A stretch of DNA of 64,000 nucleotides from Dictyostelium discoideum (Eukaryota): positions 3,424,001 to 3,488,000 of the forward strand of contig CM000153.2 of assembly GCA_000004695.1 (NCBI GenBank), written 5' to 3'. The notes beneath the pieces are model-generated. The model made no database searches, was not told where the DNA came from, and saw only the letters and a program-made list of their open reading frames with translations. Numbering within the stretch: position 1 is the first letter of the stretch; each line of letters begins with the position of its first letter. Shown here piece by piece: positions 31,429 through 60,356 of this stretch. Made by a program: the position numbers and the translations under genes.

Positions 31429-31526
<98 letters not shown>

Positions 31527-31985
31527 ATTATTATAATTATAGTCGCTTGAAAAATTATTTGAATTTAAAATTTTTGATTTACTTGAAATTAAACCTTGAA
31601 AATCACAATTTAATTTTGAAAATTGATTGGAATAAACTTCTATAATTATTGACTCTATATCAATAGAGTTATAATATGGATTTGTTAATTGATCAGAACC
31701 TTCAAAATTATTTATAAGGAATGATCTCTCTATATCACTTTGGTCTCCAAGTTCATTATTATTATTTATATTACCACAAACATTGTTATTATTATTATTA
31801 TTATTGTTATTATTATTACTAATATTTTTATTATTATATTTTTTATTACTATTTACAACTAATTTTAGTATTGGTTTTATTGGTTTTATTGGTGACGATG
31901 GCTGTTGTTGTGGTTGCTGGAATTGGTTTTCTTTTAACAATGATGTTTCAAAAAGAGAAACAGATTTAGAGGATGTGAAATCCAT
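30900..31985 (-). CDS. degenerate or truncated L-family paralogue: no signal peptide, poly-Asn and poly-His tracts, TM and conserved cytoplasmic tail
   Basis: It shares PILKLVVNSNKKYNNK, VCGNINNNNELGDQSDIERSFLINNF and SDQLTNPYYNS with 32501..34534 (NSNSPIKYNNSKCGNIDNNEPPCIKLGDAGDRARSFLLNNF, TQLIIQLTNPFYN). TM is IFIGLMAFLILFILMVIGLLIY. The tail (LLEKRYQRKK...GDIDNVFFFKNN) parallels MLEKRAKNR...GEVDNLFFYQDD. Confidence 0.5.
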
Positions 31986-32500: not shown

Positions 32501-33527
32501 TTAAAATTGTTTTTTACTAATATTAATACTATTATCATCTTGATAAAAGAATAAATTGTCAACCTCGCCAGCTATTTGTAATTTTTCTCTTTGATAGTTA
32601 CTATCAGTACCACCACTACCATCATCGATATCAGCCTCACCATTGCTAACATGTAAAAGAGATTGATTTTCATCAGCACTTGGTATATGATCCAATTGAG
32701 AGAATTTTAAATCCATTCTATTTTTAGCACGTTTTTCAAGCATAGAGTCAACTGTTTTCTTTAGAGTGACCCTATAGAAAATAAACAATGTAGCTAGCAC
32801 TAGGAGAACACAACCACTAACTAATAAACCAATTAAAAGCTTTTGAGAAGATGTTAAATTTTTTGGATTTTTTTTAATTTCACCATTGAAATAACATTGA
32901 TCACATAGATAAATTTCATCAGTATTTGAAATATAGGTTTGAGTATCACTTGAGATATAAGAGTTTTTACCAATAATTGGATAACTTGAAAAGAGTACAC
33001 TATTAATTAAATTTACTGTTGAATTAATTAAATTTAAATCACTAAAACCTATTCCTTTATCCCTAAATTGAACATTATTAAAAGTATAAGCACCACAATT
33101 ATTTAATGAAAATAATGACATTCCACTATTATTATCATTATCACTACTACTACTATCACCATTACTGTTTGTATAATTTAAATTATTTTGAATTGAAATA
33201 TCTTGAAATGTAAAATTATTATTAAAATTATTTGAAATATTATCAGTAAATTGAATACTTATCAATGAAATAGCATTATCAGATGAGGTGGTAACATCTA
33301 AGAATTGATTGAGATTAATATTCAAATCATTAACTATTATATAATCATATTGATATAATTGTAATTGTCCATTATTTTGACTTTGATAAAATTGAATTGA
33401 TTCATTTTGGAAAATACTTAAAAAACTATTTAAATTATTATTTTGAGTTATTAAATTTGATTCAAATCTAATATTTGTATTACAATTTAATAAGAATATA
33501 AAAGGTGATATATTATTATTATTATTA

Positions 33528-33586
<59 letters not shown>

Positions 33587-34534
33587 GTTGCTTGTTGTAT
33601 CATAGAAATCATTATATTTAATTGTCGATGAAAACATTCTTATTCCACCATTTTCAATACTAATGAATGAATTATTTGAAAATTTAGAATTTTTAATAGT
33701 ACTTGTTAAAATTTGAAGTTTTGAATTTATAATTTTAAATGTTGGTAATAAAGTTGGATTTGTATTATTAAAAGTACATGATACAATTATAATTGAATTT
33801 AATGTTAATTTATTATTATTACTATTATTATTATTATTATTAGCTGTATTATTATTAATTGATATTGAATTTACTATTACACCATTAATCTGATAAAAAT
33901 TTGAATTATAAATATGAAATAATGATAATGTTGAAGCATTGGTTTGAATATCAAATATTGTTGTGTTATTATTAAATTGTGTGAATGTGAAATTACTAAT
34001 TCTTATATCCATATATTTTAATTGATATTGATTAGTTTGTTTAATTGTTAAAAATGGTAAATTTATATTATTATTTTCACTATTGATTATTATATTGTTA
34101 TTATTATTATTGGTGTTATTAATATAATTGTTTATATATATTGACGAAAATCCAAATAAATTACCCAAAACTGATGTTGAATCATTATTGGTTATATTAT
34201 AAAATGGATTTGTTAATTGGATTATTAATTGAGTAGAACTTGTAAAATTATTTAAAAGGAATGATCTTGCTCTATCACCTGCATCCCCTAGTTTAATACA
34301 TGGTGGTTCATTATTATCTATATTACCACATTTACTATTATTATATTTTATAGGACTATTACTATTTACAAATAATGTTAGTGTTGGTGGTAATATTGGT
34401 GTTGGTGTGGTTGTTGTTGTTGTAGGTGAAGGTAGTTGTGTGGATAATAATAATAATGATGATGTTGATGATGATGATGATGATGATGTTTGTATTAATA
34501 AATTAATTAAAAGAAATAAATAAATATTTATCAT
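32501..34534 (-). CDS. L-family surface glycoprotein: signal peptide, N-glycan-rich probable beta-helix ectodomain, TM, cytoplasmic tail; 677 aa
   Basis: Signal MINIYLFLLINLLIQT. Family motifs C..PPCIKLGDAGDRARSFL and LGNLFGFSSIYIN are present. Dozens of NxS/T sites occur in short repeats rich in N, I, F and S. TM is LLIGLLVSGCVLLVLATLFIFY; the tail ends ...GEVDNLFFYQDDNSINISKKQF. Confidence 0.7.
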
Positions 34535-39965: not shown

Positions 39966-41387
39966 ATGAAAAAAAAGGTATTATTACACACTCAAGTCGA
40001 ACTTGATGAATTAAAAGAATATATGCTATCAGGTAAATATTTTTTTTTTTCTTTTTTTTTTCTTTTTTTTCCATTTCAATTAATTTAAATTGATTATTTA
40101 AAAAATATTACACCAGGTGATCCCTATGGAAATTTAAATTTAAATAAGAATGAAACAACTAAAGATCCAAGATTGATTGAAAAAAGTTATAAAGTTTTGA
40201 TTAGAAAACATAAAATAGCAATGAGCGAAAAAAGAAAACAAGAGACCAAACCAAATAAAGATGAACTTGAAAGAGACGAAGAACATTTTATAAAATTAAC
40301 AAATTCATATAAACTCTTATCAAATCGTAGAATGAAAGAATTATATGATCATTATTACTATGAAAAAATGGTAAAAATAAATAAAAGTAATGAAAAAAAT
40401 GAAAGTAATCCTTCATTTTCAAAAAGTTTATCTTCAACCTCAACTTCAGCATCAACATCAACAACAACATCACAAACATCACAAACATCAAGGTCACACA
40501 CATTATTATTATTAAAAGATTTATCACATTTATTAATGAATATTACATATTATCCAATTAGAGAATATTGTTATTTCATTCAAAGTTCAGTTAATATTAA
40601 TGGAGGATTCGATGAAAATGTATTTAATTTTAAAGAGTTACCAAAATATGGATTAGGAAAACTTTATAGAGGAATATTATTATCATCAATTGGTTTAAAT
40701 CAACTCAATGCTTTTAGAAGTATTATATTGAGCAAAGTTGCTGGTGGTTTATTGCAATTAAAACCTCACTCTTTGGTTGGTAGAATTTTAAGGTTTGCCT
40801 CCAAGTTTGCTGTTCTTATTCCATTTTGTTTGGTTGTTGACGTTTATGTTTTGGCACCAACCGAGTATTCTTTAATTAAAGTAATTAGAGATTGTATTCT
40901 AAAGAGAGGTGGTGACGGTATCAAATTTAGTAATTTATATTACTCTTTGTTCCCATCACTATCAATATTGGTTTCCAAGAAATTAATTAGAGGATCCGTT
41001 GAATTTTTAAAAGAAAGAATTAGTAAAAAATATGAAAATAATAAAGAAAGTAAGAAATTGGCCATATTGAATTCACTATTTTCAAATGTTGGTCTATTAT
41101 CAAGTTTCCTGTGTTGCCCTTTACAAGTGATTTATATTCAATATCCAAAGTTAATCATTAATTCTTATTTAGAAAATAATATTAGTTCAATACCATCACC
41201 TACTTTAAATCCAATCTCAATTGCAATTGAAATTTATAAAAATAACAATAACTCATTAAGTAAATTCTTTTGTGGTTTAGTTCCATATATATTATCAAAT
41301 GTTTATTTACATTATATTACCTCGGCCGCTATCATTAATACTAATAATAAAAAGTCAACTTATGATTATTTTGATATTTTTTCTTAA
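39966..41387 (+). CDS. protein with degenerate J-like domain plus mitochondrial-carrier-like repeats; 2 exons: join(39966..40032,40117..41387)
   Basis: Exon 1 encodes MKKKVLLHTQVELDELKEYMLSG, with donor GTAAAT at 40033 and acceptor AG at 40115-16 (phase 1). The J-like segment is DPYGNLNLNKNETTKDPRLIEKSYKVLIRKHKI...FIKLTNSYKLLSNRRMKELYD, without HPD. Carrier-like segments are YGLGKLYRGILLSSIGLNQLNAFRSIIL, CCPLQVIYIQYP and IEIYKNNNNSLSKFFCGLVPYILSNVY. Its architecture parallels 35087..36253. Confidence 0.55.
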
Positions 41388-42395: not shown

Positions 42396-44270
42396 ATGAA
42401 TAAAAATTTTTTATTTACATTATTTTTAGTGTTTGTAAATGTAATTTTTGTTGCATCACAAAGAGTCAATATTTCAGTTGATTACAGTATTAATAAAGGA
42501 TATAGCAATTCACAATGTGGTGTTGATACAGAACCAGCCTGTACGTCATTAGAAGATGCAGGAAATAGAGCAATTTTGGAATCTGTAGAGAATAATGCAA
42601 CCCCAATTTTAATTTATATCCTCAGTAATATTAATGGATCAGCGCCTGCTTCTCTTGGTAATTTGTATTCAGTTTGTGCATTTATTCAAATTCTATCACC
42701 AAATGCAAGCAATCCATTCACAATTGATGGATCAAATACAGATCAACCATTTTTAACAATTGAAGAACCAAGTGAACAACAAACAACATCATCAACATCA
42801 TCATCATCATCATCATCACCAACATGTTTAATTCAAAGAAAAATTTATATATCAAATTTAAAATTTACAAATTGGAAACAAACCCTTATTAAAATCCATA
42901 TAAATCAAGAAACAAAAGAAACACCAACTGACCAATCAAAGAGTATTATATTACAAGTTTTCAGAACAGAGGTATCTTATTCAAGTAGTATTTTATTAAT
43001 TTATCCAAAGAATCAAAATGAATATTATAATTATAATTCAATAGCGATTTTGGCTATGATTACAGCTAAATATATGACCTCTTCACCAAACTTACTCGCT
43101 CCAAATTCTATTGATGAATTATTACCACCTTTATATATCGTCGGTGCTGCGGTTCAAGATCAAATTTATCTTGAAAATAGTAATATCTCATTAACTCCAT
43201 TTTTCTACATTGAAAAGTGCCTTTGGAAAGGTGGTATCAGAAACATCTCTAATAATATCTTTTCTTGTAACCCTTATATGTTCTTTGTTAAAAGTCATAT
43301 GTTCAGTATAGGTATGATTTCATTTTTTAACAATGAAGTTATGACCTATATTTATATTTTAGAACAACAAGCCGATTTTGTAGCTATCACACCAGTAGCA
43401 GATTTAGCCAATATTTCAACGCCAACCTATTGTCATAAAAACAAATATTTAAACCATCAATACTATAACTCATTTACTGTATTTATAAGAGGAAATTCAA
43501 CTTTTTCTGATCTTTATTTTAATATGCTCAGCTACTATAAATCAAATATTGATTTTTTTTATGCCCAAGATTCAAATATCAATTTTGAATTTGCTGCTAC
43601 TTATCCACCAAATCGCGGATATGCGAATCTATTCAAAATTATCAATTGCACCCTCAGAATTTATAATGTAGATATGTCCGTCTATCAATTCCCAATTGTT
43701 GGCTCAAATTCGTCTGTATACCTTGATAGCTATTATTTAAATAACACTCTCATTTTCAAAAATGAAACCTTTTGTAATTGTAGTGATTGTTTATATTATG
43801 AATATTTAAATTCAAATATCAAAAGAATTGATACTTCTTTTAGATATTCCTTATGCAACCCTAAACTTACTCCAACTCCATCAACTACCACTACTCCAAC
43901 ACCTTCAACAACTACAACTTCAACATCTACAACTATTACAGATCCAACAGCAACAACTACCACTACAACCACTTTAATTCCAACTTCAACAACTTCAACA
44001 ACTACATCAACAACTTCAACAACAACTACAACAACAACGACAATAATAACAACAACAGCTGCAACAACGATGACTGCAACAACAGCTGCAACAACGACAA
44101 CTTCAATTCCAACTACCTCAATAACCACTTCAGACATAACCACATCTCCCATACAAACAGGTTCACATTCAACTTCAAGTGCAGAAAAAATATCAATGGC
44201 CGAGCCAACTTCAAAAAGAACCTCAATAATGGTATTGTTTATTGTGGTAATAGTGTTTATTTTCATGTAA
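42396..44270 (+). CDS. L-family surface glycoprotein with poly-Thr/Ser mucin stalk and C-terminal TM (about 625 aa)
   Basis: Signal MNKNFLFTLFLVFVNVIFVAS. Motifs SQCGVDTEPACTSLEDAGNRAILES, LGNLYSVCAFIQI, NLKFTNWKQTLIKIHINQET, IYPKNQNEYYNY, LPPLYIVGAAV and the FCNCSDCLYYEY Cys cluster. About 100 aa of T/S/P-rich stalk, then TM IMVLFIVVIVFIF at the extreme C-terminus. An unresolved 3' exon is possible. Confidence 0.7.
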   Translation: MNKNFLFTLFLVFVNVIFVASQRVNISVDYSINKGYSNSQCGVDTEPACTSLEDAGNRAILESVENNATPILIYILSNINGSAPASLGNLYSVCAFIQILSPNASNPFTIDGSNTDQPFLTIEEPSEQQTTSSTSSSSSSSPTCLIQRKIYISNLKFTNWKQTLIKIHINQETKETPTDQSKSIILQVFRTEVSYSSSILLIYPKNQNEYYNYNSIAILAMITAKYMTSSPNLLAPNSIDELLPPLYIVGAAVQDQIYLENSNISLTPFFYIEKCLWKGGIRNISNNIFSCNPYMFFVKSHMFSIGMISFFNNEVMTYIYILEQQADFVAITPVADLANISTPTYCHKNKYLNHQYYNSFTVFIRGNSTFSDLYFNMLSYYKSNIDFFYAQDSNINFEFAATYPPNRGYANLFKIINCTLRIYNVDMSVYQFPIVGSNSSVYLDSYYLNNTLIFKNETFCNCSDCLYYEYLNSNIKRIDTSFRYSLCNPKLTPTPSTTTTPTPSTTTTSTSTTITDPTATTTTTTTLIPTSTTSTTTSTTSTTTTTTTTIITTTAATTMTATTAATTTTSIPTTSITTSDITTSPIQTGSHSTSSAEKISMAEPTSKRTSIMVLFIVVIVFIFM

Positions 44271-44382
44271 AACAAAATCTTTCCATTATTTATATTTTTA
44301 TATTCTAATAAAATTTATGCGCAAAATTTTTTTTTTTTTTTTTAAGTAAATATTATTTAAAACATTCAGCGAAAAGGGTTTT

Positions 44383-45351: not shown

Positions 45352-46119
45352 ATGTTTAAATTAAATTTTAAAAATAATTATAAAGTTTTAACACTTTTAT
45401 TCTCTTTGACTCTTTCAATGTTTGTTTCAAATGCTCAAGTTTATTACCCAGGCTATTTAAATAATGTATCTAGTATTTCAACGGTTTCTGCAGATTATTT
45501 CCCACTTTTAGTTCACAATCCTCCATTAACCAATTCTACAACTTATTCTTTTAATGAGGCTATTAATTTACTTGACACAGTTACTGATCCAATTTTTAAT
45601 GCTACTCAAATTCAAGCATTACTTAATACATGGGCCTCAAATGTTAAAGCCGTTATTGGTCTTTCTTTACCAATTTATGTTACACAACTCAATAGAATTA
45701 ATCGTATTGATTTACTCTCAATTCAAATGTATACAGAAACCAATAGTGCCTTCATCCTCAGTGCTACAACCTATGCTCCATTAAAACCACAAGGTGTGTC
45801 AATTCTCAACCAAGTTAATGCAATTAAAGCTTCATTGAATGGTATTACTTTAACAACTACTCAACAAGCTCAATTGACTCAATTCAATGCTGCAATTTCT
45901 AAAATTCAACTTTCTGTCTCAAATAGCCATTTAATTACTTTTGGTGCTAATGATGTTATTCCATTCAACTCTGACTCTTTATCTTACATGGAATATATTG
46001 CTGATGATATTTTAACATTAGATGATGCTATTGATATAATTAAACAAAATAATGTTAGAATTTTAAATTATATTTATGATTTATATTCAACACACAAAAC
46101 TTTAAGCTTAAATTTTTAA
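45352..46119 (+). CDS. S-family small secreted protein (255 aa), paralogue of 50787..51530 and 56410..57210
   Basis: Signal MFKLNFKNNYKVLTLLFSLTLSMFVSNAQ. It shares a C-terminal SYM...LY...L.F block with the other two (SLSYMEYIADDI...ILNYIYDLYSTHKTLSLNF). It is Thr/Ser/Asn-rich with no TM. Confidence 0.6.
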   Translation: MFKLNFKNNYKVLTLLFSLTLSMFVSNAQVYYPGYLNNVSSISTVSADYFPLLVHNPPLTNSTTYSFNEAINLLDTVTDPIFNATQIQALLNTWASNVKAVIGLSLPIYVTQLNRINRIDLLSIQMYTETNSAFILSATTYAPLKPQGVSILNQVNAIKASLNGITLTTTQQAQLTQFNAAISKIQLSVSNSHLITFGANDVIPFNSDSLSYMEYIADDILTLDDAIDIIKQNNVRILNYIYDLYSTHKTLSLNF

Positions 46120-46455
46120 ATGTAAAAAATATATATAATCCAATAGCGTAATCTTTTATTTTATTTTTTTTTTATCGAAATTTAATCAACCAAAAAAAAA
46201 AAAAAAAAAAAAAAAAAATAATTAAAAAAAAAAAAAAAATAATAATAATAAAATAAATAAATAAAACAAAAAAAAAAGAAAAATAATAAAGACCAATCTT
46301 TTTTTTTTAATTTTTTAAATTTTTGATGTGTTTTGGTTGAGGTTTTTTTTTTTTTTTTATTTTCATATCTGATTTTCATTTCCAGGGGGTTTTTTTTTTT
46401 TTTAATTTTTTGAGTTTTGGTGTAATTTTAGAAATTTTATTATAAAAAAAAAAAT

Positions 46456-46479
46456 TTCTTTGCAGGATGTGCACAAAAA
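46456..46479. promoter_or_regulatory. conserved intergenic motif TTCYTTTGCAGGATRTGCACAAAAA (copy 1; copy 2 at 47301..47324)
   Basis: The same 23/24-nt GC-containing motif, preceded by a poly-A run, occurs twice about 850 bp apart in otherwise unalignable AT-rich spacer between cluster genes. Confidence 0.3.
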
Positions 46480-46917
46480 CCTGCATTTTAAAACTAAAAA
46501 AAAAACCATTTGCGAGATATTTTTTTATTAAAAAAAAAAAAAAAATATCTTATATTTGTTTTATATTTTTTTTTTTTTAATATATTTTTTTTTTTTTTTT
46601 TATAATATATTTTTTTTTTCTCCCCTTAAAAATAATCCTAAAGAACAATGATCATTTGAAAACAAAATCTATTTATTTTTTTTTAAAAAAAAAAAAATAG
46701 AAAAAAAAAAGGTCCAATTACACCACACACATAAGTGGTAGGATCAGCAAACTCATGGGCCACAAACTTTTAAACCCTTATTACTTGTATACACTTCCTA
46801 TTTACATAGCGCAACTCTATAGATTTTATTGGATTGATTAGATAGCGGGTTCAACCTCATCAGTTTACAGATCATATCACTAAGCGCCAAGGTATTTTTT
46901 TAAAAAAATTTACATAT

Positions 46918-46963
<46 letters not shown>

Positions 46964-47618
46964 TTAATAATTAAAATAAATATTCCGAATCAAAACAATA
47001 TTTTTTTTTTTTAGTCAATTAATTTTGATAGGCCATAATTTGGTTTTTGTATTGTTTATTCTTTTTTTTTTTTTCCTTTTTCCTTTTAAATTTTTTTTTA
47101 TATTTTCGCATATCCTCGGTCGTTCAAGGCACTCCTCCAATTCCAAGAATATATATTTTTTTTTTTTTTTTTTTTTAATTTGCTTGTTGGGTTGGTTTTT
47201 ATGGTGTTTTTTTTTTTTTTAATTATTTGAACAAATATCAACCGAAAATTTACCCTTTTTTTTTTTTATAATAAATTTTAAAAGAAAAAAAAAAATATTT
47301 TCCTTTGCAGGATATGCACAAAAATATTCATTACAATTAATACGATGATGGAAAGTAATTTTGTAAATTTGAAGAGTTTAAAGTTATAATAAAAAACCTA
47401 ATTGGTGTATGCTTTCTAACTCTCCTTTTTTTTATTTTTTTTTTTTTTTTATTTTTTTTTTTTTTATAATGGGTTTTTTTTTCTTGGCCATCGAAAACAT
47501 ATCTATTTATTTATTTTTAAAGATACCCCAATAATTTTTCTTGCGTAACGAGTATTATTTTTAAAAAAAAATTTTTTTTTAAATTTTTTATATGTATATT
47601 TATATAAATATTTATATA

Positions 47619-47676
<58 letters not shown>

Positions 47677-47926
47677 GAATTTTTTTTCTTAAGAGCAAAT
47701 ATAGCAAAAAAGAAAAAAGACGTTATTAATTATTAATACCAATGCGGATTGAGTTCTCGGTGATTTTGAAAATATCTTCAATCAAGTGACTTTTTTTTTT
47801 TTTTAAATTTTTAAAATTTTAATGTATTTTTTGAATAAAAACAAAAAACTTTTTTTTTTTTAATTGTTGTCGTTCTCACACTTCAATAAACTGATATTGT
47901 TGTACAACAATTTACAATTTTATTTA

Positions 47927-47957
<31 letters not shown>

Positions 47958-47997
47958 TTTCCAACCAAAAAAAAATAAAAAAATAAAAAAAAAAAAA

Positions 47998-49428
47998 ATG
48001 AAAAATAATGTTTTTTTTTCAATTTTATTTTTAACCATCAGTTTTTTGATTTGTGTTCCAAATGCAACATCTCAAACACTTTCAACAGCCATCACATTGA
48101 AAGTTGATTTCGGTTCTATAACACCATATGTCAATAGTGAGTGTGGTGGCATTTTGGATAGTAGCGATACCACAATCTATCCACCATGTAAAAGTTTTAA
48201 AGACGCAGGCAATAGAGCCAGACAATATCTCAACAGTGGACTTGCAATTCCAAATAGTAACTACCTCACCATCAGTGTTATTAATACTGCAATTACACCA
48301 AACATTGACGGTGAATCAGCTCAACTTGGAAACCTTTTTGGATTTTGTACTGTCGATATTTTAATTGCCACCACCACATCACGTGCAATTGTAGATGGAA
48401 CTTTATCAACATCTCACTTTGTCAGTCTCCAAGAACCAAATGTTCCAAACACATCATACCAATGTAGTTCTGGAAAAACATTAAGAATTAGAAATATTGA
48501 ATTTAAAAATTGGGGTAACCAAACAATCGTATACACCAATTTAAATCAAGTTTTCAATAGCCTCACCAAGCAATCCATTTTCTTCGCAACAGTATACACA
48601 TGGTTTTCCAACAGTATTATCAACGTTCAACCAAAAGGCACAAACTTTGAATATGGATCTGTAGCTTTTCAATGCAGTATTTGCTATTTTAATAACATCA
48701 ATTCATCATTAACTTTACCACCATTCAACTTTAATGGTGCCAATGTAGTTATTATAGGCTCTCGTTTCCTTAATTCCATATTAAACTCATCACCATTTAT
48801 TTACTCAAATATCGGTCTCTTCAATTTAAAGGCAACAAGTTTAATTGATAATGTCGTTATCAATAATGGTCATCCATTTGTAAAAACTTTGAATGTTGGC
48901 GATAATTTTTACTACACTGGCGTTACAGTCTCCAATTGCCAATTCTCAAAATTTATACAACACGAAAATAACAAAATCAATGCTCCAAGAGAATCTGCAA
49001 TTCTACATATCTCAACTATGTATTTAATTAATAACATTATCACCTCAAACTACAATGATCCAACAAATTCATTTTTTTCATTCCAAAATTTCATTGGTGC
49101 GTCTTATACCTTGGATTTTAATACTATATCTTCATCAGGTAACATCGTTCTCGGTCAAAACAAATCTTTTATTTCTAATCAAAATTCAAATTCCACGAGC
49201 TCTTTCTCAGAACCTCCAAGTGATTTCCAAATAGGGTTTAACACTGAAAATTCACACACTGATATATTATATTCAAGCGTTTTATCAACCATTCCTTTTG
49301 TTGGATCCAATTCAATCTTTACTTTCTCCTCCTCTGGTGATTGTATTATCGCAAACACTGCAAATTATAACCATTGTGGTACCTGTCAAATTATAGTTGA
49401 TTCTGATATAAAATATGATAATCTATAA
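47998..49428 (+). CDS. L-family (secreted subtype, 476 aa); inverted duplicate of 36993..38417
   Basis: Signal MKNNVFFSILFLTISFLICVPNATS, then near-identical sequence through ...HENNKINAPRESAI. The C-terminal 140 aa diverge and end ...NHCGTCQIIVDSDIKYDNL. The alternate-frame artefact ORF 48128..48364 equals 38054..38314 on the opposite strand. Confidence 0.7.
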   Translation: MKNNVFFSILFLTISFLICVPNATSQTLSTAITLKVDFGSITPYVNSECGGILDSSDTTIYPPCKSFKDAGNRARQYLNSGLAIPNSNYLTISVINTAITPNIDGESAQLGNLFGFCTVDILIATTTSRAIVDGTLSTSHFVSLQEPNVPNTSYQCSSGKTLRIRNIEFKNWGNQTIVYTNLNQVFNSLTKQSIFFATVYTWFSNSIINVQPKGTNFEYGSVAFQCSICYFNNINSSLTLPPFNFNGANVVIIGSRFLNSILNSSPFIYSNIGLFNLKATSLIDNVVINNGHPFVKTLNVGDNFYYTGVTVSNCQFSKFIQHENNKINAPRESAILHISTMYLINNIITSNYNDPTNSFFSFQNFIGASYTLDFNTISSSGNIVLGQNKSFISNQNSNSTSSFSEPPSDFQIGFNTENSHTDILYSSVLSTIPFVGSNSIFTFSSSGDCIIANTANYNHCGTCQIIVDSDIKYDNL

Positions 49429-49639
49429 GCAAAATAAATATTTTTTTTAAAATCAATTTTTTTTATTAAATATAATAGAAAAAAAAAAATAATAATAAAA
49501 AAAAAAAAAAAAAAAAAAAAATCATTATCTATTTTCTTTTTTTTTTTTTTATTTTATTTTTTATTATATTTTTATTTAAAACAAAAATAAATCAATTTTT
49601 TTTTTTTTTTTTTAAAAAAAGAGATAACCACCTTTAGCA

Positions 49640-49770
49640 CAATGAATAATCAGTGAATAGTTATAATTTTAAAAAAAAAATTTTAAAAAATTTAATAGAA
49701 CAGGATAACTTTCATTTAAAGATAAAAAAAAAAAATTTTCAAATTATAATTATTCACTGATTATTCATTG
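49640..49770. repeat. inverted repeat (30-bp arms, 1 mismatch, 71-bp spacer): hairpin or MITE-like element
   Basis: Left arm caatgaataatcagtgaatagttataattt at 49640..49669. Right arm aaattataattattcactgattattcattg at 49741..49770 is its reverse complement with one mismatch. Confidence 0.6.
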
Positions 49771-50238
49771 GCTAATTACAATCAGCAAAAAAATATGGGT
49801 TTTATTATTACGCAACACATTCAAAAATAAAAAATTAAAATAAAAATAATTATGTTCAAAATTTTACCGCCTGCAAAGAAAAAAAACAAATCATAACAAA
49901 TTTGTTTATTTTTTTTTTTTTTTTTTATTTTATTTTTCTTTTTTTTATTTTTCTTTTTTTATTTTTCTTTTTTTTTCAAAAAACGGTTTAACAAAAATAC
50001 ACAATTTAAATGTGTTGTATTGCGTAATAAAAAAAAAAAAATCAAAAAAAAAAATATCTTTTGTGAAGTTTGCACATCGACGAACTATTTTCCTTCCCTT
50101 TTCGGTTTTTTTTTTAAATTTATTATTTTGATTATTTTAATTTTTTTTTTTTTAAATTTATTTTTTTGATTATTTTCCTATTCTTTTTTTTTTTTTTTTT
50201 TTTTAGATTTATAATTTTTATTTTATTTTCTTCCTTTT

Positions 50239-50285
<47 letters not shown>

Positions 50286-50511
50286 ATTTAGTTTCTTTGA
50301 AGGTTCATTGAAATATATACAATATGAAAAAATTCGAGTCTATATTTAACCACATTATCTAGATAAATAGTTCGCGAGCAAAACACGAAAGTAACTTTTT
50401 TTATTTTTAAAGAAATGAACAACCTACTTTACTAAGAAATTGATCAAATGGTTTTTTTAATTTATTTTTATTTTTTTTTATTTTTTTTTTTTTTTTTTTA
50501 AGATATTTTCT

Positions 50512-50564
<53 letters not shown>

Positions 50565-50786
50565 ATGAGACAATTTTTTAATATTTTAACCAAATTTTTT
50601 TTTTTTTTTATTTTAAAAATAAATATACTCTTTACACTCTTTGCTTTTTAATTATCTTAATTGTAAGTTTCCATCATTTATTTATTTTTTGTTTTATTAA
50701 TTTTCTTTTTTTTTTTTTTTTTTTTTTTCATACAATAATAAATTTCATAAATTAATAATTTTTAATTTAAAGAACCAAATACAGAA

Positions 50787-51530
50787 ATGACAATAACCAA
50801 TTATCCATTTGTTACTGGTTCAAACCTTACATCACCATGCGATATTCCTCGTGTCGCTCTTCTTGCTTATACAAACCAAAGTCTTGCATTAAATGCTGCT
50901 GGAGGTACAATTGAAAGCGCATCAGATTTATTCTCAATCACTCTTTGCAAATATTATTTGAATAGCGTCGTTTCTCTCTCTCCAACCAATGTATTTGGTG
51001 GTGTTGCACATTATTCCAGTTTAACAACACTTATGAATAATCTTGACTCTGCCGCTGATACCATTCTCAATGCACTCTACGCATCCATCAATACTTGTGG
51101 TACTTTCACTGATTTGACTGCAACAAAATTCGACACACTCTCAACAGCCTTTAGTGGTTATAGAACAACTATTTTATCACTCCAAACTAGTTCTAATACT
51201 TTAAAAACAGCAATCACTACAACCAGAGACAGTTTAACATTGACCACTGACATTTATAACACTGTAAAAACATGTTACACAAATGTTATCACTGCTTTAG
51301 AAGGTTTGAGTGCTCGTTTGGGTCAAGTTGCATCTTTACTTAATACTCATAACGCAAATTTCCCAACATTTAAGGATAATGTTACCTCTTATACTGATCC
51401 AGAAGGTCCAGGTGATCAAAGCAATTATATGTCTTCAATGAACTATTCCATGGTTACTTATTTGATTAGCTCAAATACCATTTTTTCAAAACTTTATTTT
51501 TATAAAAGATTACGTGGTGTTATCTTTTAA
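50787..51530 (+). CDS. S-family small secreted protein paralogue; 5' signal-peptide exon unresolved
   Basis: Aligns with 56410..57210: TNYPFVTGSNLTSPCDIPRVALLAYTNQSLAL versus TNYIPAIGRDLINPADIPRAALPTYSNQLDAL. LCKYYLNSVVSLSPTNVFGGVAHYSSL aligns with FSKYYLNNIVALSTSNTFGAVSHYNNL. The C-terminus SNYMSSMNYSMVTYLISSNTIFSKLYFYKRLRGVIF aligns too. It starts where its paralogue's mature protein begins. An upstream ATG at 50565 and a hydrophobic stretch ending at a GTAAGT (50663) suggest a first exon, but the frames do not join as sequenced. Confidence 0.5.
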   Translation: MTITNYPFVTGSNLTSPCDIPRVALLAYTNQSLALNAAGGTIESASDLFSITLCKYYLNSVVSLSPTNVFGGVAHYSSLTTLMNNLDSAADTILNALYASINTCGTFTDLTATKFDTLSTAFSGYRTTILSLQTSSNTLKTAITTTRDSLTLTTDIYNTVKTCYTNVITALEGLSARLGQVASLLNTHNANFPTFKDNVTSYTDPEGPGDQSNYMSSMNYSMVTYLISSNTIFSKLYFYKRLRGVIF

Positions 51531-51619
51531 ATATATTAAATTTAATTTAATTAAATAGATCTGTAATTTTAGAAAAGATTCATAAAAATAAATAAATAAA
51601 GAAATTGTCTTCTTTTAAA

Positions 51620-51658
<39 letters not shown>

Positions 51659-51929
51659 TTATAATTTTATTCACAATTAGCGCCACCCTCACCAAAAAAT
51701 CTTGAGATTTTAAAATTTTTTTTTTTGAATTTTTTTTTTTTTTGAAATTAAAAGATTTAGATATTTATTTTTTTTTTTGATAAACGGGAAAAAGTTGTAA
51801 AAAAAAAAAATTCGAAAAAAAAAAAAAAATTAAAAAAAAAATTAAAAAAAAATAAAATTAAAATAAAAAAAAAAAAAAAAAGCCAACATCACTTTTTTTA
51901 ATTTTTTTTTTTAATGTTTTTTTCGCTTG

Positions 51930-51962
<33 letters not shown>

Positions 51963-51965
<3 letters not shown>

Positions 51966-53627
51966 ATAAATCAACCAAATTATTTATTATTTTTTTTATT
52001 ATTTATTTATTTAAATATTTTGGTTGTGAATTCAGATGAAAATATCTTTGTAAATTACAATGTTAATAGAAATTATATTAAACCAGAGGAATGTGGTTCA
52101 TTGGAAATTCCATGTGTTTCTTTAGAAGATGCTGGAAATAAAGCAATTTTAGAAAATAAAAATGGAATTGAAAAAATTATTATCAATATTATTGGAAATA
52201 TCAATGGGTCTACATCGGCATCATTTGGTAATTTATATAGTTTTTGTGGTGTTTTGGAAATTAATTCCTATGACACTCAAAAAATAACGATTGATGGATC
52301 AAATTCAAATAACCCATTTATTAATATTCAAGAGAATCAGTATGAAAGTTGTTTAATTCCAAAAAAATTTCCGATTAGAAATATTAATTTTAAAAACTGG
52401 GAGCAAACATTGGTAAATATTAATATCAACCAAGAAACAAATCAAACTGTAAATGTGGAATCACTATTTATATATTTTACCAATAATACCATGAATTCTT
52501 TAAGTAATATTATTTCTGTTTATCCAAAGAACATGGGAGAGATTTTCAATTCAAAATCAATTTCGATACAGTTTGATAATTCTTTGGCTGAAAAATTAAA
52601 ACCATCGTCAACTTTTGCACCAAATTCAAATACTGATTATTTACCACCCATTTATGTTGTTGGAGCTACAATTAAAAGTATACCTAGTTTAAATGATAAT
52701 AACTTTACCACCACTCCTTTTATTTATCTCAGTCAGGCAATTTTAAGATCTTCACTTCAAACAATCACTAACAACAATTTTTGTTATCCATTTGCAATTT
52801 CAACAAATAAGAGTACTGTGAGCTTTGCAAATTTGTTTGCACCTTTTGACAATAATAAGATTAAAACTCTTCTTTTCATTTCTGACTCATATAATGTTGA
52901 TAGTCTTTTCTTTAACTTTACCAATAATATGCCAGCCGTTTGTTCCAGTAAACAATACCTAGGTAATATATTTGATGACTCTTTTATCACAGTAAAAAAT
53001 TCTTTCAATTCGACTCTTATTACTGGTATTTCACCAAATAAACCTTTACCTGTTTCAATATTTAATAGTGTCACCGAATTAAATTCAATTGATTTAAACC
53101 GTTTTAATTTTAATATTGTCAATAGTGTTGTCATCTTTCGTTTTAATCTTACACTTTCTGAATGTACTATCACTGGAAGTAACTCTGCTCTATACCTAGA
53201 ATATAATGAAACTTTGTGTAGTTGCCCAGGTTGTGACTACTATATGAATGAAAGAAAAGCTTTCTCAACAGATTGCAATCCACCAACTGTAACTCCAACC
53301 ACTACAGGTATAGATACAACCAGAGAACCATCACCATCACCATCATCATCATCGTCATCATCTCCAAAAAATAACTCCATTAGAAACATTGTCATAATTA
53401 TTGTTATTTTGGGGTCAGCATCTATTGCTTCAATTGTACTCTTTTCTTTCATCTACAAAAGACATAAAAATAAAAAGTATATACTAAATTCCATTTCTTC
53501 AAGTAATACTATGAGTGAAGAAGATAATGACTTAGCAGGTGCAGCTGCCGATAATGATGTATCACCAAATCTCGAATCTACTACTGCCTTTGAAGATGAT
53601 GATTGTGCACAATTAGAACATATTTAA
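51963..53627 (+). CDS. L-family type-I membrane glycoprotein (554 aa) with TM and acidic cytoplasmic tail ending AQLEHI
   Basis: Signal MINQPNYLLFFLLFIYLNILVVNS. Motifs EECGSLEIPCVSLEDAGNKAILEN, FGNLYSFCGVLEI, IRNINFKNWEQTLVNININQETN, VYPKNMGEIF, LPPIYVVGATI and CSCPGCDYYMNE. An S/P stalk is followed by TM IVIIIVILGSASIASIVLFSFIY. The tail is KRHKNKKY...EDDDCAQLEHI. Confidence 0.7.
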
Positions 53628-53653
53628 TTTATAATCAATTGTTTTTTTTTTTC

Positions 53654-53701
<48 letters not shown>

Positions 53702-53836
53702 TACATAATCATTCACACTAATTTGCAAAAAATAAAATAAAATAATTAACTATTAATATTATCATTTGAATCATAGATTTTTAATTTCACTTTTTAATTT
53801 AATATTTAATAAACTAAAAAAATAATAAATGGCAAC

Positions 53837-53881
<45 letters not shown>

Positions 53882-53973
53882 CCAAATTTTAAAAAACCCC
53901 CAGGTTTTTATAATTATGGTTTTTTTTTTTAGGGGGGCCCCCCAAAATTTTTATTCCTTTTTTTATGGGGGGG

Positions 53974-54016
<43 letters not shown>

Positions 54017-54634
54017 AAATAATAATAATAAGAATTAAACATTAAACCAATAAAAACAATCCCACATTGTTATAAAAAAAAAAAAAAAATTTTTTCAACT
54101 ACCATCGGTAAGAAACTTTTTAGCAAAAAATAAAAAAACAAACATTGGATAAAAAAAAAAAAAAAAAAATTAAAAAAAAAAGATTATGAAAACCGATTGT
54201 TTTTTTTTTTTTTTTTTTAATATTTTATTATTTTCTAAGATCCAAAAATACCAAATATTACCCCCTTTCCCTAAAAAAAAAAAAAAAAAAAAAATTAATA
54301 GAAAAATATTGTTTATCACAGGTTAAGAGGATATTTTTTCAAAGATCCTAATTTTTTGGCAAACGAAATTGATTTTTTTATTTATTGCGACGATCCTTTT
54401 CTTCTTTTTGATTTTTATTTTTTTTTATTTTTTTTTTTATTTTTTATTTTTTTTTTCAAAATATCTAACTTCCAAATTTTTTTATTATAAAACGATCAAT
54501 ACCACTTAGGAACACAAGAACTCTTTTTTCTTTTCTTTTTTTTTTTTTTTTTTTTATTTTTTTTTTTTTTTTTTTTAATGTAATTTTTCTTTTTTTTTTA
54601 TTTTTTTTTTTATACATTAGATTTACTATAAAAA

Positions 54635-56047
54635 ATGTATAAAGGATTTAATTTTCTTTTTTTGATTTTATTTTTATTGTTAGCATTTAATATCTCATTC
54701 ATAGTTTCACAAAACACTATTTCAGTTAATTATAATGTGCAAAGAAATTATAATTCATTTGAAGAATGTGGTTTAATTGGTGAACCAGTTTGTACATCAT
54801 TGGAAGATGCAGGTAATAGAGCAATTTTATTATCAAAAACAAGTAACCCAACAAACTTCATCAATATCATTGGTAATATTGATGGATCAACACCTGTCAC
54901 ATTTGGTAATTTATATAATTATTGTGGTAGATTGTTTATTAGATCAAGTAATAGCAATATAAGTATTAATATTAATGGATCAAATTCGACTCAACAACCA
55001 TTCCTCACCATTCAAGAAGCTGATCAACCAAATTCGACTTTTCCATGTTCAATTCCAAGAATATTTCAATTCCAATATATTAATTTTACAAACTGGAACC
55101 AAACACTTGTAAATATTAATATTAATCACGAAACAGATTTAAATTCAGTTAATCCATCAAAGAGTTTAACAGTTTATTTTCAACTTGTAAACATAATTTC
55201 TTCAAGTAGTATTTTAAAGATTTATCCAAAGAACTTTGGTGAAAATTATAATTTACAAGCAATTACTGTGGCATATTTATCAACAATTGGTATAGATTTA
55301 AAATCATCATCGGTTTTATTTTTACCAAATTCGACCCAATTTTATTTACCACCAATTTATTTAGTTGGTGCATCAATAATTTCAATTTTAAGTTTATCAG
55401 ATAGTACATTTGAATCAACACCATTTATTTTCTCTGACAATGGAAGTGTATCTTCAGTAGATTCCGAAGTTTCAAATAATAACTTCTATTCATATCCATT
55501 CATTATGGCCGTCAATGGTGGAAAGGTATTACTTCCTATCCTTTCTTTTACAAATAATAGTCTTTCAACTTTTGTTTACTTTTCAAATTTTAATAATCAA
55601 CCATCAATTAAAGTTACATTTTCAAATAACATCTTTGGAAATTCATTCATTCAGAATAGTAAATTTATGAAATATAAATATGAAAATTCTATTTTTGTAA
55701 TAAAAGATAGTGACTTTTCCACCATTGATCTTTTAGGTTATTCAATTTTAAATCAAAACACCATCACCAACGATTTAATATACATAGTAAATAGTAGTTT
55801 AAATTTAGATAATAGTGTAATTAGATCACCAATGTTAGTTCCTCAACATATAATTAATTCAATTAATAGTTCAGTTTCAATTATTAATTTTAACCTTACA
55901 ATCAGCGAACTACCAATTGTTGGTTATAATTCAAATATACATCTATTTAGTTCAGTTTTCACAAACAATGTTTATTGCGGTTGCCAAGGCTGCTCCTATT
56001 ATATTCAATTGGATTTGGTTAATTTAAATCAGTATTCATCTCAATAA
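54635..56047 (+). CDS. L-family secreted glycoprotein (470 aa, no TM); tandem duplicate of the partial gene at 62954..64000
   Basis: Signal MYKGFNFLFLILFLLLAFNISFIVS. Motifs EECGLIGEPVCTSLEDAGNRAILLS, FGNLYNYCGRLFI, YINFTNWNQTLVNININHETD, IYPKNFGENYN, LPPIYLVGASI and YCGCQGCSYYIQLD. It ends shortly after the Cys cluster. Confidence 0.7.
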   Translation: MYKGFNFLFLILFLLLAFNISFIVSQNTISVNYNVQRNYNSFEECGLIGEPVCTSLEDAGNRAILLSKTSNPTNFINIIGNIDGSTPVTFGNLYNYCGRLFIRSSNSNISININGSNSTQQPFLTIQEADQPNSTFPCSIPRIFQFQYINFTNWNQTLVNININHETDLNSVNPSKSLTVYFQLVNIISSSSILKIYPKNFGENYNLQAITVAYLSTIGIDLKSSSVLFLPNSTQFYLPPIYLVGASIISILSLSDSTFESTPFIFSDNGSVSSVDSEVSNNNFYSYPFIMAVNGGKVLLPILSFTNNSLSTFVYFSNFNNQPSIKVTFSNNIFGNSFIQNSKFMKYKYENSIFVIKDSDFSTIDLLGYSILNQNTITNDLIYIVNSSLNLDNSVIRSPMLVPQHIINSINSSVSIINFNLTISELPIVGYNSNIHLFSSVFTNNVYCGCQGCSYYIQLDLVNLNQYSSQ

Positions 56048-56409
56048 TCTCTAAAACTATTAAATTAATAACTTTCTTAAAAAATTTTTAAAAATAAATA
56101 AAATTTTTTATTCAGTTTAATTGGTGTATTATACTTTTATTTATTTTTTAAAATAACTCTTTTAGTCTGATAACAATAATGATGGTATAGTATTAAAACT
56201 TTGAATCTACATTTTCAAATAACCTTTTTAATAGAAATTTTCAAAACAAAAAAAACTAATATGTAATTTTGAACAATTTTCTTTTTTTCTTTTATTTTAT
56301 TTATTTATTAATTTTTGATTTAAAACTAAAACCAATTAATTATAAAAAAGAGTTTAGAATAAATTTTTTTATATTTTTATTTTATAAACATTTTAATTTA
56401 TTTGAAGTT

Positions 56410-57210
56410 TCAAAACAATTCTTTTAATCTGGTAAATAGTAATGATCTACTATAAAGGCTATTGGCATATATAAAAATGAGCTTCATGTAAGAATTCATA
56501 TTTCCCATATAATCTTCATCTGATGTAAGAGAATCAACATAAAATTCTACTTCTTCTTTACAAGTTGGCATTAAAGATAAAATATCACTAAGTTCATTTT
56601 TAATTAAATTAAAACGGTTTGAAATTAAAATAACAGATTTGATAGCCAAATCATAATTATCTTTAACAACTTGAACAGTGGCTGCATTGGGAGTACTTGG
56701 TAATAAAGAATTTTTTGTTGAATTCATTGCTGAGGCCAAAGATGTTGCTGATTGTTTTATTGTGTCAATGCTTGATTTTAAATTATTAATTGATGTTGAA
56801 ATTGTATCAAATTTTGAAGGGTCATAATTGGTGTATTTTGTAATTGTATTAATATTACCAATAGTATTATTTAAAATGGCAAAGGCAATGTTGTTGGCAT
56901 CATTATATAATGATATTAAATTATTATAATGAGATACGGCTCCAAATGTATTACTTGTCGAGAGAGCTACGATATTATTTAAATAATATTTACTAAATGT
57001 AATATTAAACACCTCCTCTGGCACTTCATAACTAATAGCTTTAGAAAATTGTAAAGCATCTAATTGATTTGAGTATGTAGGTAATGCAGCACGGGGTATA
57101 TCGGCAGGGTTTATAAGATCTCTACCTATTGCCGGTATATAATTTGTAACTAATGAATTTGAAAAACAAACTAAAGAAAGAATAATGACCAAAGGAATTT
57201 GAAAAAACAT
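56410..57210 (-). CDS. S-family small secreted protein (266 aa)
   Basis: Signal MFFQIPLVIILSLVCFSNS, then conserved blocks shared with 50787..51530 and 45352..46119. The C-terminus is DYMGNMNSYMKLIFIYANSLYSRSLLFTRLKELF. Confidence 0.6.
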   Translation of the reverse strand: MFFQIPLVIILSLVCFSNSLVTNYIPAIGRDLINPADIPRAALPTYSNQLDALQFSKAISYEVPEEVFNITFSKYYLNNIVALSTSNTFGAVSHYNNLISLYNDANNIAFAILNNTIGNINTITKYTNYDPSKFDTISTSINNLKSSIDTIKQSATSLASAMNSTKNSLLPSTPNAATVQVVKDNYDLAIKSVILISNRFNLIKNELSDILSLMPTCKEEVEFYVDSLTSDEDYMGNMNSYMKLIFIYANSLYSRSLLFTRLKELF

Positions 57211-58505: not shown

Positions 58506-60356
58506 TTATAACCTTTCTAGTTGTGCGAAATCTTCATACTCTTGTTCATAAGCCACTACCGATATGTCAATGGTCGGAGAAACTGCTTTTTCATCCTCAT
58601 CTGCAACAGCAATACATGTGCCATCATTAAGTACACTATCATTTGAACTAATTTTATCATGATTATGGAGCTGTGAGTTTGAGATATATTTATTATTTTT
58701 ATGTCTTTTATAAATGAATGAAAATATAATAAGGGATCCAATAGACGCAATACCCAAAACTGAAGTGATAATAGCAATATTCCTTGATCTGCTACTTTTT
58801 GGAGAATTTGGTGTTGCAGTTGATGTTGGTACTGGTGTTTGAGTTGGTTTTTGAGTTGATGTTTCGGTTGTTGGGCTTTCCGTTGGTGTATCTGTTGGTG
58901 TGTCTGTTGGTGTGTCTGTTGGTGTGTCTGTTGGTGTATCTGTTGGTGTATCTGTTGGTGTGTCTGTTGGATTAGAACCACATGGATAGTTTGTGTTATC
59001 ATGTATGGTTTCTCCTAAATAATAACTGCAATTTTGGCAACCACAAAAAGATTCATTTGTAAAGGTGAAAGGATTTAAAAAAAATATGGAGGAATTGCTT
59101 CCAATAATGGGTGTATCAGAATTACTTAGGTCCAAACCAGATAAACTGACTGAACTACTTTCTGTTTTTAAAAAATAATTGGGTGATATAAGTGAAGAAA
59201 TTTCCCTGAATGCAAAAGAGAGTGAACTGTTTTCAACAAAAACTAAAAAGTTTTCAATTGAATTTAAGGAAAGAGTTGATTGCAAACAATCTTTAATTTC
59301 TACGTGGCTCTTTTTGATTACTGCAAATGAATCTTCATATTCAAGTCCAAGATATTTATTTCTGTGATAAAATGGTGTTTGTGTGGTATTCTCGTATTCA
59401 AAGTTAAATAGTGTTGCGCCATTGCAATCATATAAATATATGAATGTGGAGAGTTGGTTGTTTTTGAAAATTAATAATTTCAGTGTGACCAAGGAGCTGA
59501 TTGACAAAATGAATGGATTCACCGAGAAATTATTGTTTGACATTGTTTGAGTTGGAATGTTAATCTCTCCACCTTGGATAAAAACAAACGGAGTAGACAA
59601 GAATGTTCCATTATCTATATTCATACCTCTATTAATAAAACCACCGACCACATAAATAGGTGGTACATAATCGGTAACTGAACCTGGTGCAAACAGACTT
59701 GAAGACGACTTTAAGTTATAACCTAAGGTTGATATAAAATGTACAGTGGTGAACCTTGCGTTGTAAATCTGGCCTAAATTCTTTGGATAAACCATTAATA
59801 TGCTACTTGATGAATATATATTTACACGATTGAAATAAAGAGCAAACGATTTTGAATTGTTAGTTGAAGTTAAATTTGTTTCTTGATTAATGTTGATTTT
59901 TGCAATTGTTTGGTCCCAATTTATGAAATTTATATATTGCAAATAGAAATATCTTTGTGATGTACATGAATAGGTTGAATTTGGTTGATCTGGCTCTTCA
60001 ATATTGAGAAATGGTTGTTGCGTTGAGTTCCAACCATCAATGTTAATATATACAGTGTCACTACCCGATTTAATATATAATTTACCACAATAATTATATA
60101 AATTTCCCAATGAAACAGGTGTTGATCCATTAATATCACTAATAATAATAATATTATTACTTGTATTGGTTTTTGATAATAAAATAGCTCTATTTGAAGC
60201 ATCCTCTAATGATGTACAAACTGGTTGATTATCTACACCACATTCTTCAAAAGAATTGTAATTTCTTTCAACATTATAATTAACTTTAATATCTGTTGCA
60301 ACGCAAATATTTAATAAAAAAAATAATAAATAAAAATATTTTAATTTTTCAATCAT
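58506..60356 (-). CDS. L-family type-I membrane glycoprotein (616 aa) with (PTDT)n stalk, TM and tail ending AQLERL
   Basis: Signal MIEKLKYFYLLFFLLNICVA. Motifs EECGVDNQPVCTSLEDASNRAILLS, LGNLYNYCGKLYI, YINFINWDQTIAKININQETN, VYPKNLGQIYN, VPPIYVVGGFI and FCGCQNCSYYLGE. A (TDTP)8 stalk is followed by TM IAIITSVLGIASIGSLIIFSFIY. The tail KRHKNNKY...YEDFAQLERL is homologous to that of 51963..53627. Confidence 0.7.
   Translation of the reverse strand: MIEKLKYFYLLFFLLNICVATDIKVNYNVERNYNSFEECGVDNQPVCTSLEDASNRAILLSKTNTSNNIIIISDINGSTPVSLGNLYNYCGKLYIKSGSDTVYINIDGWNSTQQPFLNIEEPDQPNSTYSCTSQRYFYLQYINFINWDQTIAKININQETNLTSTNNSKSFALYFNRVNIYSSSSILMVYPKNLGQIYNARFTTVHFISTLGYNLKSSSSLFAPGSVTDYVPPIYVVGGFINRGMNIDNGTFLSTPFVFIQGGEINIPTQTMSNNNFSVNPFILSISSLVTLKLLIFKNNQLSTFIYLYDCNGATLFNFEYENTTQTPFYHRNKYLGLEYEDSFAVIKKSHVEIKDCLQSTLSLNSIENFLVFVENSSLSFAFREISSLISPNYFLKTESSSVSLSGLDLSNSDTPIIGSNSSIFFLNPFTFTNESFCGCQNCSYYLGETIHDNTNYPCGSNPTDTPTDTPTDTPTDTPTDTPTDTPTDTPTESPTTETSTQKPTQTPVPTSTATPNSPKSSRSRNIAIITSVLGIASIGSLIIFSFIYKRHKNNKYISNSQLHNHDKISSNDSVLNDGTCIAVADEDEKAVSPTIDISVVAYEQEYEDFAQLERL

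Follow-up and report, generated by a model that had tools for sequence, protein, structure and literature searches.

RESULTS

S genes in an array of L genes

The window studied here is a 64,000-nucleotide stretch of Dictyostelium discoideum DNA (contig CM000153.2 of assembly GCA_000004695.1, positions 3,424,001 to 3,488,000 of the forward strand; GC content, ~22%). Its part from 42 to 64 kb contains only six genes of a surface glycoprotein family (L1 to L6) and three small genes (S1, S2, and S3), which are listed with neighboring L genes in Table 1. The products of the open reading frames (ORFs) in the window were identical in every residue to D. discoideum AX4 proteins. We found that the array grew via duplication of blocks containing L and S genes together, and we tentatively propose that the S proteins are soluble partners of the ectodomains of their L neighbors.

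A preliminary description of this DNA, made from the sequence alone, had placed three S genes here, encoding Thr/Ser/Asn-rich proteins of 247 to 266 amino acids. All three ORFs were confirmed as annotated AX4 proteins, and S1 is iliA. Ser, Thr, and Asn together make up 30 to 36% of S1, S2, and S3; all three proteins are acidic and have 3 to 4 N-glycosylation sequons (3 in S1), and S1 has no Cys residue. To call them three secreted proteins of one family, as the preliminary description did, was overstated, since S2 has no recognizable signal peptide and S1 is only a probable relative of the other two.

Signal peptides were read straight off the sequence. S1 and S3 have textbook signal peptides, as does every S3- or S4-type homologue from other species; that of S1 is MFKLNFKNNYKVLTLLFSLTLSMFVSNA, with cleavage before the Q that follows. 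The iliA protein was detected by mass spectrometry in Cln5-GFP immunoprecipitates, was among the proteins secreted differentially by cln3- cells, and was present in conditioned medium/starvation buffer (PMC6406579). S1/iliA and S3 enter the secretory pathway.

S2 had also been credited with a signal peptide, to be supplied by a missing 5' exon. A hydrophobic N terminus was found neither in S2 nor in any S2 orthologue. The N terminus of S2, MTITNY, falls at the alignment position of the mature S3 start; the reading frame is closed upstream by an in-frame TAA at 50763-50765; and all S2 orthologues, including that of D. purpureum, start with MT(I/V)(T/S)(N/D)(Y/F) or MPITNY. We then scanned exhaustively every ATG...GT exon of up to 180 nucleotides, with an intron of 50 to 600 nucleotides and any AG acceptor near the start. 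The scan returned no phase-compatible candidate in AX4, D. firmibasis, or D. citrinum, and the single candidate in D. purpureum was non-hydrophobic. Because of the upstream TAA, the failure to find a compatible 5' exon, and the conserved start of the orthologues, we conclude that the S2 orthogroup lacks a classical signal peptide, and the idea of a missing 5' exon finds no support.

Upstream of S2, a short ORF at 50565-50651 resembles a signal peptide and has no in-frame splice to S2. Read by hand, the candidate 5' exon at 50565-50662 ran into stop codons or was out of phase, and it was rejected. Immediately before S2, the region between L2 and S2 carries very long tracts of T and of A (50480-50562), among them about 40 consecutive A residues.

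Conserved linkage and block duplication

In AX4, the anchored L neighbors are L1 for S1, L3 for S2, and L5 for S3, and each S gene additionally touches an unanchored L gene, L2 or L4. The direct adjacency of each S gene to an anchored L gene, as previously described, was therefore confirmed, though it is automatic: since the array contains L and S genes only, S-L adjacency within AX4 is uninformative.

Synteny was examined in retrieved loci only, and the D. citrinum locus tags do not follow coordinates. The order in D. firmibasis is J2, L1, S1, L2, S2, L3, L4, S3 (minus strand), and L5 (minus strand), followed by another L gene and a fourth S gene; the orthologue of J2, a gene of the J family described below, is 70% identical and lies immediately upstream of L1. 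D. purpureum has an iliA-like, an L2-like, an S2-like, and a transmembrane (TM)-anchored L3-like gene in the same S1-L2-S2-L3 order and orientation as AX4, at 27 to 31% identity to AX4. No counterparts of the genes flanking the D. purpureum block exist in any part of the 64-kb window.

Two of these gene models call for comment. The annotated D. firmibasis S3 orthologue (P0010; 289 amino acids, spliced, with a Gln-rich N terminus; retrieved locus L002, 10001-11827) seems mis-annotated, and an intact 266-amino-acid ORF with a signal peptide is present at L002, 11027-11824. The D. purpureum iliA-like gene (locus L006, 3072-4333) has two frameshifts, followed by an N run/assembly gap and its 3' end repeated in degraded form, and is either an assembly artifact or a pseudogene.

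The pairing of L5 with S3 recurs outside the main locus. Three species, D. dimigraforme, D. citrinum, and D. cf. discoideum, have a second S3-like gene on a different contig, directly downstream of a same-strand L5-like gene that is 48 to 55% identical to L5, which is the arrangement of L5 and S3 in the window. This second-locus pair (loci L003, L004, and L005, about 3100-10800 each) stands beside an ankyrin-repeat gene foreign to the main locus. The S-L order is thus kept in whole in D. firmibasis, over S1-L2-S2-L3 in D. purpureum, and, for L5 followed by S3, at an unlinked site in three species.

Additional S-L-L-S arrangements were present in D. citrinum. Strain ACTFIR of D. discoideum has two copies of the L5-S3-L4 unit (locus L009, 7200-20189), which are 86 to 95% identical to AX4. 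The rate of synonymous substitution (dS) between the AX4 and ACTFIR copies is 0.13 to 0.20, which is high enough to indicate paralogues or old haplotypes and not simple alleles. L5-S3-L4 therefore varies in copy number and haplotype within D. discoideum. The duplication of units holding both gene types across loci and strains indicates that the array grows by copying blocks of L and S genes together.

Predicted fold of the S proteins

The AlphaFold model of S3 is confident (pLDDT 87, pTM 0.82). It has short helices in the first ~85 residues, followed by four long antiparallel helices (residues 91-123, 132-168, 176-211, and 214-260) joined by short, polar loops. For S1, the model is of low confidence (pLDDT 53), and its matches are generic four-helix bundles only; the predicted helices of S1 span residues 84-117, 124-161, 169-193, and 209-253. 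On these models, the S proteins would be all-alpha glycoproteins of ~250 amino acids, with an N-terminal segment of ~70 residues and then a long antiparallel four-helix bundle.

A Foldseek search of S3 against the PDB gave nothing significant (best E = 0.16). Pfam searches of all S and L proteins gave no domain above noise, and no S protein matched the Pfam HlyE, Bacillus_HBL, or apolipoprotein families at E <= 1. Matches of S sequence profiles to PDB entries, such as the coronavirus spike HR1, were coiled-coil or compositional and were rejected as homology. When hydrophobic segments were sought with a 19-residue window (Kyte-Doolittle mean >= 1.6), none was found in S1 or S2, and S3 had only its signal peptide.

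We compared the S proteins with the ClyA family of alpha-pore-forming toxins (ClyA/HlyE, NheA, Hbl-B, YaxB/PaxB, XaxA, MakA, AhlB/C, and Cry6Aa). The S helices, at ~35 residues, are shorter than those of the toxins, and the S proteins have neither a head domain nor a hydrophobic beta-tongue or helical hairpin. Identity is 6 to 13%, with no Pfam match and Foldseek E values of 0.16 or above, and de novo designed bundles match the S proteins better than these toxins do. The resemblance to ClyA is one of fold class, a lead and not family membership. In plants, the PMEI-PME system pairs a four-helix-bundle inhibitor with a secreted enzyme. The S proteins differ in having no Pfam PMEI match and no PMEI disulfides (S1 has no Cys at all), so that the likeness is an analogy only.

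Relationship among the three S proteins

S2 and S3 are paralogues, with 34% identity over 247 amino acids (BLASTP, E = 8e-41). The alignment of S2/S3-type proteins holds 19 sequences and has 23 invariant columns. In a HMMER search of 1.84 billion representative proteins, the profile of these 19 sequences found only Dictyostelium proteins at E < 1e-10, in 7 clusters, and did not retrieve iliA. Database searches placed S homologues only in D. discoideum, its close relatives, and D. purpureum. S2 and S3 form an orphan family confined to group-4 Dictyostelium.

The place of S1 was less clear. BLASTP of S1 against S2 and S3 was non-significant (E = 0.024 to 0.25), and the first hhalign profile comparison gave a probability of 0.65%. 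The comparison was repeated with enlarged alignments, to which new members and the D. purpureum iliA-like sequence had been added. It gave a collinear match of 168 columns, from S3 residues 88-256 to S1 residues 81-248, with a score of 25.8, P = 0.0076, and a probability of 5%. As controls, the S1 alignment was shuffled 100 times by column and 100 times by block, and one reversed alignment was used. The scores were 13.8 +/- 2.4 (maximum, 21.1) for column shuffles, 13.7 +/- 2.1 (maximum, 21.5) for block shuffles, and 16.0 for the reversed alignment. The native score was about 5 standard deviations over the shuffles.

It could be argued that there is no three-member family at all, S1/iliA being an unrelated helical orphan of similar size in the same array and only S2 and S3 being kin. 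The BLASTP values, both hhalign probabilities, the exhaustive profile search that misses iliA, and the low confidence of the S1 model are all in line with this, and the two families are both rich in Asn, Ser, and Thr, a composition that inflates match scores. On the other hand, the native score exceeded all 200 shuffles and the reversed control, and under the hhalign mapping the four predicted helices of S1 and S3, taken from independent AlphaFold models, are in register with an offset of about -7. Protein length and array position also agree, with the S1-L2-S2 order kept to D. purpureum. We consider an unrelated S1 rather unlikely, and from profile and model together S1/iliA is probably a very remote member of the S2/S3 family with the same architecture. 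The three-member family first described thus stands for S2 and S3, with S1 attached by a weak profile match. The proposed C-terminal block (SYM...LY...L.F) fared similarly: its "LYS" element was aligned by hhalign, and its "SYM" part was not.

Expression of the S genes during infection

The published infection data were used as far as the source tables were accessible. In the accessible part of Additional file 3 of PMC6902447, S3 rose after Legionella pneumophila infection with a log2 fold change (log2FC) of 5.9 at 1 h and 8.7 at 6 h (false discovery rate [FDR], 1e-6), which ranks it 7th by 6-h change. The same table gives log2FC values of 2.8 and 5.4 for iliA (FDR at 6 h, 0.004) and of 0.8 and 0.9 for S2 (FDR at 6 h, 0.047). 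iliA is one of the genes iliA to iliP, named for being "induced after Legionella infection"; in this respect S3 behaves like iliA, and S2 does so weakly (PMC6902447). The ili genes are an expression class and not a protein family, and other members include metalloenzymes. We rejected iliL as a candidate L-family member, as it encodes a gp130-like glycoprotein unrelated to L.

In sorted Mycobacterium marinum-infected cells at 1 h post-infection, iliA (3.15), S2 (1.56), and L2 (1.08) were all significantly up compared with mock-infected cells, and the mean expression of S2 (8.0) and L2 (8.4) was similarly high (accessible part of Table S1 of bioRxiv 10.1101/590810). In the same table, iliA was also up compared with uninfected bystander cells (logFC 1.69). 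In the published data available, M. marinum infection had induced L0b by 2.5 h, with a log2FC of 3.46.

In growing cells, S3 and iliA show little or no expression, and intracellular bacterial pathogens induce both strongly. All three S genes are transcribed, contrary to the concern that S ORFs might lack transcripts, and we conclude that they are functional genes.

Evolutionary rates of S and L genes

Between AX4 and D. firmibasis, identity was 58 to 67% for S proteins and 54 to 66% for L proteins. At the second locus, among the three species, it was 65 to 70% for the S3-like proteins, 72% for the L5-like proteins, and 98% for the ankyrin-repeat neighbor. By these sequence identities, S and L evolve at similar, high rates. 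Gene-wide ratios of nonsynonymous to synonymous substitution (dN/dS) were 0.27 to 0.29 for S3, 0.32 for L5, and 0.46 to 0.66 for L4/L6. No gene-wide positive selection was found in this range of 0.27 to 0.66, and these genes are constrained, S3 by purifying selection.

L3 and L5 are 38% identical to each other and 32 to 36% identical to L1, and L2 is an outlier. The divergence pattern, in which S2 and S3 are closest among the S proteins and L3 and L5 among the anchored L proteins, would fit a pairing of S genes with anchored L genes, as an agreement of three taxa only.

L genes and other features of the window

The L proteins have a signal peptide and a conserved, Cys-rich ectodomain of ~440 residues, with 7 to 23 N-glycosylation sequons each. 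The ectodomain contains the motifs ECG...P.C.SL.DAGNRA, GNLY..C, and F.NW.QT and terminates in C.C..C.YY. Nothing follows it in L2, L4, and L0b. It is followed in L1 by a Thr-rich stalk and a hydrophobic end, and in L3 and L5 by a Thr/Pro stalk, a TM helix, and a conserved cytoplasmic tail ending in AQLE(R/H)(L/I). The L-family profile had no match among PDB sequences. The database name "agglutinin domain-containing" for L2 is unsupported, as there was no Pfam match at E <= 1.

Table 1. S and L genes of the 64-kb window
Gene	Identifier	Position	Strand	Length (aa)	Remarks
S1	iliA (DDB_G0285615)	45352..46119	+	255	Exact match to annotated AX4 protein
S2	DDB_G0285619	50787..51530	+	247	Exact match to annotated AX4 protein
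S3	DDB_G0285623	56410..57210	minus	266	Exact match to annotated AX4 protein
L0a		32501..34534	minus	677	Divergent L-family member, TM; no S neighbor
L0b	DDB_G0285769	36993..38417	minus		Inverted 80% identical copy of L2; no S neighbor
L1	DDB_G0285729	42396..44270	+	624	Thr-rich stalk, GPI-like hydrophobic C-terminal tail; upstream of S1, same strand
L2	XP_638166 / DDB_G0285617	47998..49428	+	476	Signal peptide, no anchor; between S1 and S2
L3	DDB_G0285621	51963..53627	+	554	Type I membrane glycoprotein; begins 433 bp after S2
L4	DDB_G0285771	54635..56047	+	470	Signal peptide, no anchor; convergent with S3
L5		58506..60356	minus	616	Type I membrane glycoprotein, (PTDT)n stalk; upstream of S3, same strand
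L6		62954..64000	+		Runs past window end; 87% identical to L4, recent duplicate

The (PTDT)n repeat stalk of L5 lies at protein residues ~455-500, and the L1 stalk is a long poly-Thr tract. Both give rise to long spurious ORFs in the opposite strand or other frames, e.g., at 43796-44275 (minus) and 58556-59002 (minus). A third co-clustered family, J, consists of paralogous ORFs at 35087-36253 (plus) and 40173-41387 (plus), of ~390 to 400 amino acids, each adjoining L genes; they are 35 to 38% identical to each other over ~165 residues. The ORF at 30900-31985 (minus) encodes a 361-amino-acid TM protein whose C-terminal tail resembles that of L0a (26% over 132 amino acids, E = 2e-6), and by this similarity it may be related to the L family, in truncated or degenerate form.

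DISCUSSION

In the present study, we found that the S and L genes of this array have been duplicated together in blocks. The reading that we favor, tentatively, is that the S proteins are soluble partners of the adjacently encoded L ectodomains and that the two form an infection-responsive module. S would act as a ligand, co-factor, or shed subunit of the neighboring L ectodomain, and each block of L and S would be a two-component surface module with which the cell responds to infection or membrane stress. The most consistent pairings would be L1 with S1, S2 with L3, and L5 with S3. The persistence of the block to D. purpureum, the retained L5-S3 pair, the joint duplications of L and S, their matched evolutionary rates, and the co-induction of the iliA-L2-S2 trio are circumstantial support for such a link.

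Several observations weigh against a partnership. The alternating S/L order inside AX4 proves nothing by itself, and block duplication suffices for the alternating co-expansion, with no functional link needed. It is not unusual for a block of four genes to be conserved from D. discoideum to D. purpureum. L0a, L0b, L4, and L6 have no S gene of their own, and S2, having no signal peptide, would have no classical route to an L ectodomain. Co-expression, which had been put forward as a check on the pairing, was found in part: M. marinum infection raised iliA, L2, and S2 jointly at 1 h, but L4 was down in the infected cells (bioRxiv 10.1101/590810, Table S1), and L1, L2, L3, and L4, with verified identifiers, were not among the Legionella-regulated genes listed in the accessible part of Additional file 3 of PMC6902447. 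S-L co-expression is thus present for the S1-L2-S2 trio and not for S3 and its neighbors. The functional pairing that the preliminary description drew from co-expansion therefore keeps the conserved linkage and the trio co-induction on its side and loses the argument from adjacency.

The main rival, which we rank only a little below the partnership, is that the S proteins are independent secreted helical-bundle effectors induced by infection or stress, and that their adjacency to L genes is a by-product of segmental duplication in a fast-evolving "secretome island." The S proteins might in that case bind lipids or membranes in the manner of apolipophorin/ApoE-type bundles or of ClyA-type toxin tails. 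The 40- to 400-fold induction of S3 and iliA by Legionella, with the neighboring L genes missing from the regulated genes listed in the accessible table, fits independent effectors well, as do duplicated blocks that carry two L genes per S gene or L alone. However, the S proteins have no hydrophobic hairpin or head beyond the signal peptide and match none of the Pfam HlyE, HBL, and apolipoprotein families, and independent effectors leave unexplained both the intact L5-S3 pair at the second locus in three species and the co-induction of iliA, L2, and S2.

A developmental role is less likely still, and we regard it as improbable. The S proteins would then be secreted matrix or sheath glycoproteins related to starvation and development, and pathogens would induce them only indirectly, through a starvation-like state of the infected cells, the cluster having no role in defense. 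The genes gskA and zakA encode early-development kinases. Consistent with a developmental role, iliA has been described as under gskA/zakA regulation and was detected in conditioned starvation buffer (PMC6406579), and developmental genes such as cotD and cyrA stand beside S3 in the accessible part of the Legionella list at 6 h post-infection. Against it, in the accessible M. marinum data, iliA was already up at 1 h post-infection compared with both mock-infected cells and bystanders, at a time when spore-wall gene sets were negatively enriched.

The arrangement may be likened to tgrB1-tgrC1, an adjacent, fast-evolving, lineage-specific ligand-receptor pair for allorecognition in D. discoideum that varies in copy number and sequence between strains. 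By analogy, the S and L genes are co-clustered, co-duplicating, and fast-evolving genes for secreted or membrane proteins. The Tgr proteins differ in being two large transmembrane proteins with IPT/TIG domains, encoded by divergent genes, whereas S is a small, helical, soluble protein; neither S nor L has an IPT/TIG or other Pfam domain, and their gene-wide dN/dS is below 1.

A more speculative extension, to which we give little weight, is that the blocks of L and S are an amoebal innate-immune module. The pathogen-induced S proteins would be ClyA-tail-like, membrane-active proteins or ligands sent to the pathogen vacuole or the cell surface. It is just as conjectural that the adjacent L protein would serve as receptor, anchor, or self-protection partner, co-evolving and co-duplicating with S under bacterial pressure.

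In the searchable literature, we found no description of the S family relationship, of the fold of iliA, or of the conserved S-L linkage. The S genes themselves were already annotated, and one of them is named; S and L belong to no known family and are lineage specific. iliA and DDB_G0285623 (S3) are among the genes most strongly induced by Legionella or M. marinum and have no assigned function. The results presented here place them in a small helical-bundle family, S1 as a probable member, that has multiplied together with a surface glycoprotein family since before D. discoideum and D. purpureum split. They also offer a concrete hypothesis, that of a soluble partner and a membrane glycoprotein, with defined gene pairs. 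If the pairing is false, the cluster would be an ordinary fast-evolving secretome island; if it is true, the S and L proteins would make up a new lineage-specific recognition or defense module in a model phagocyte.

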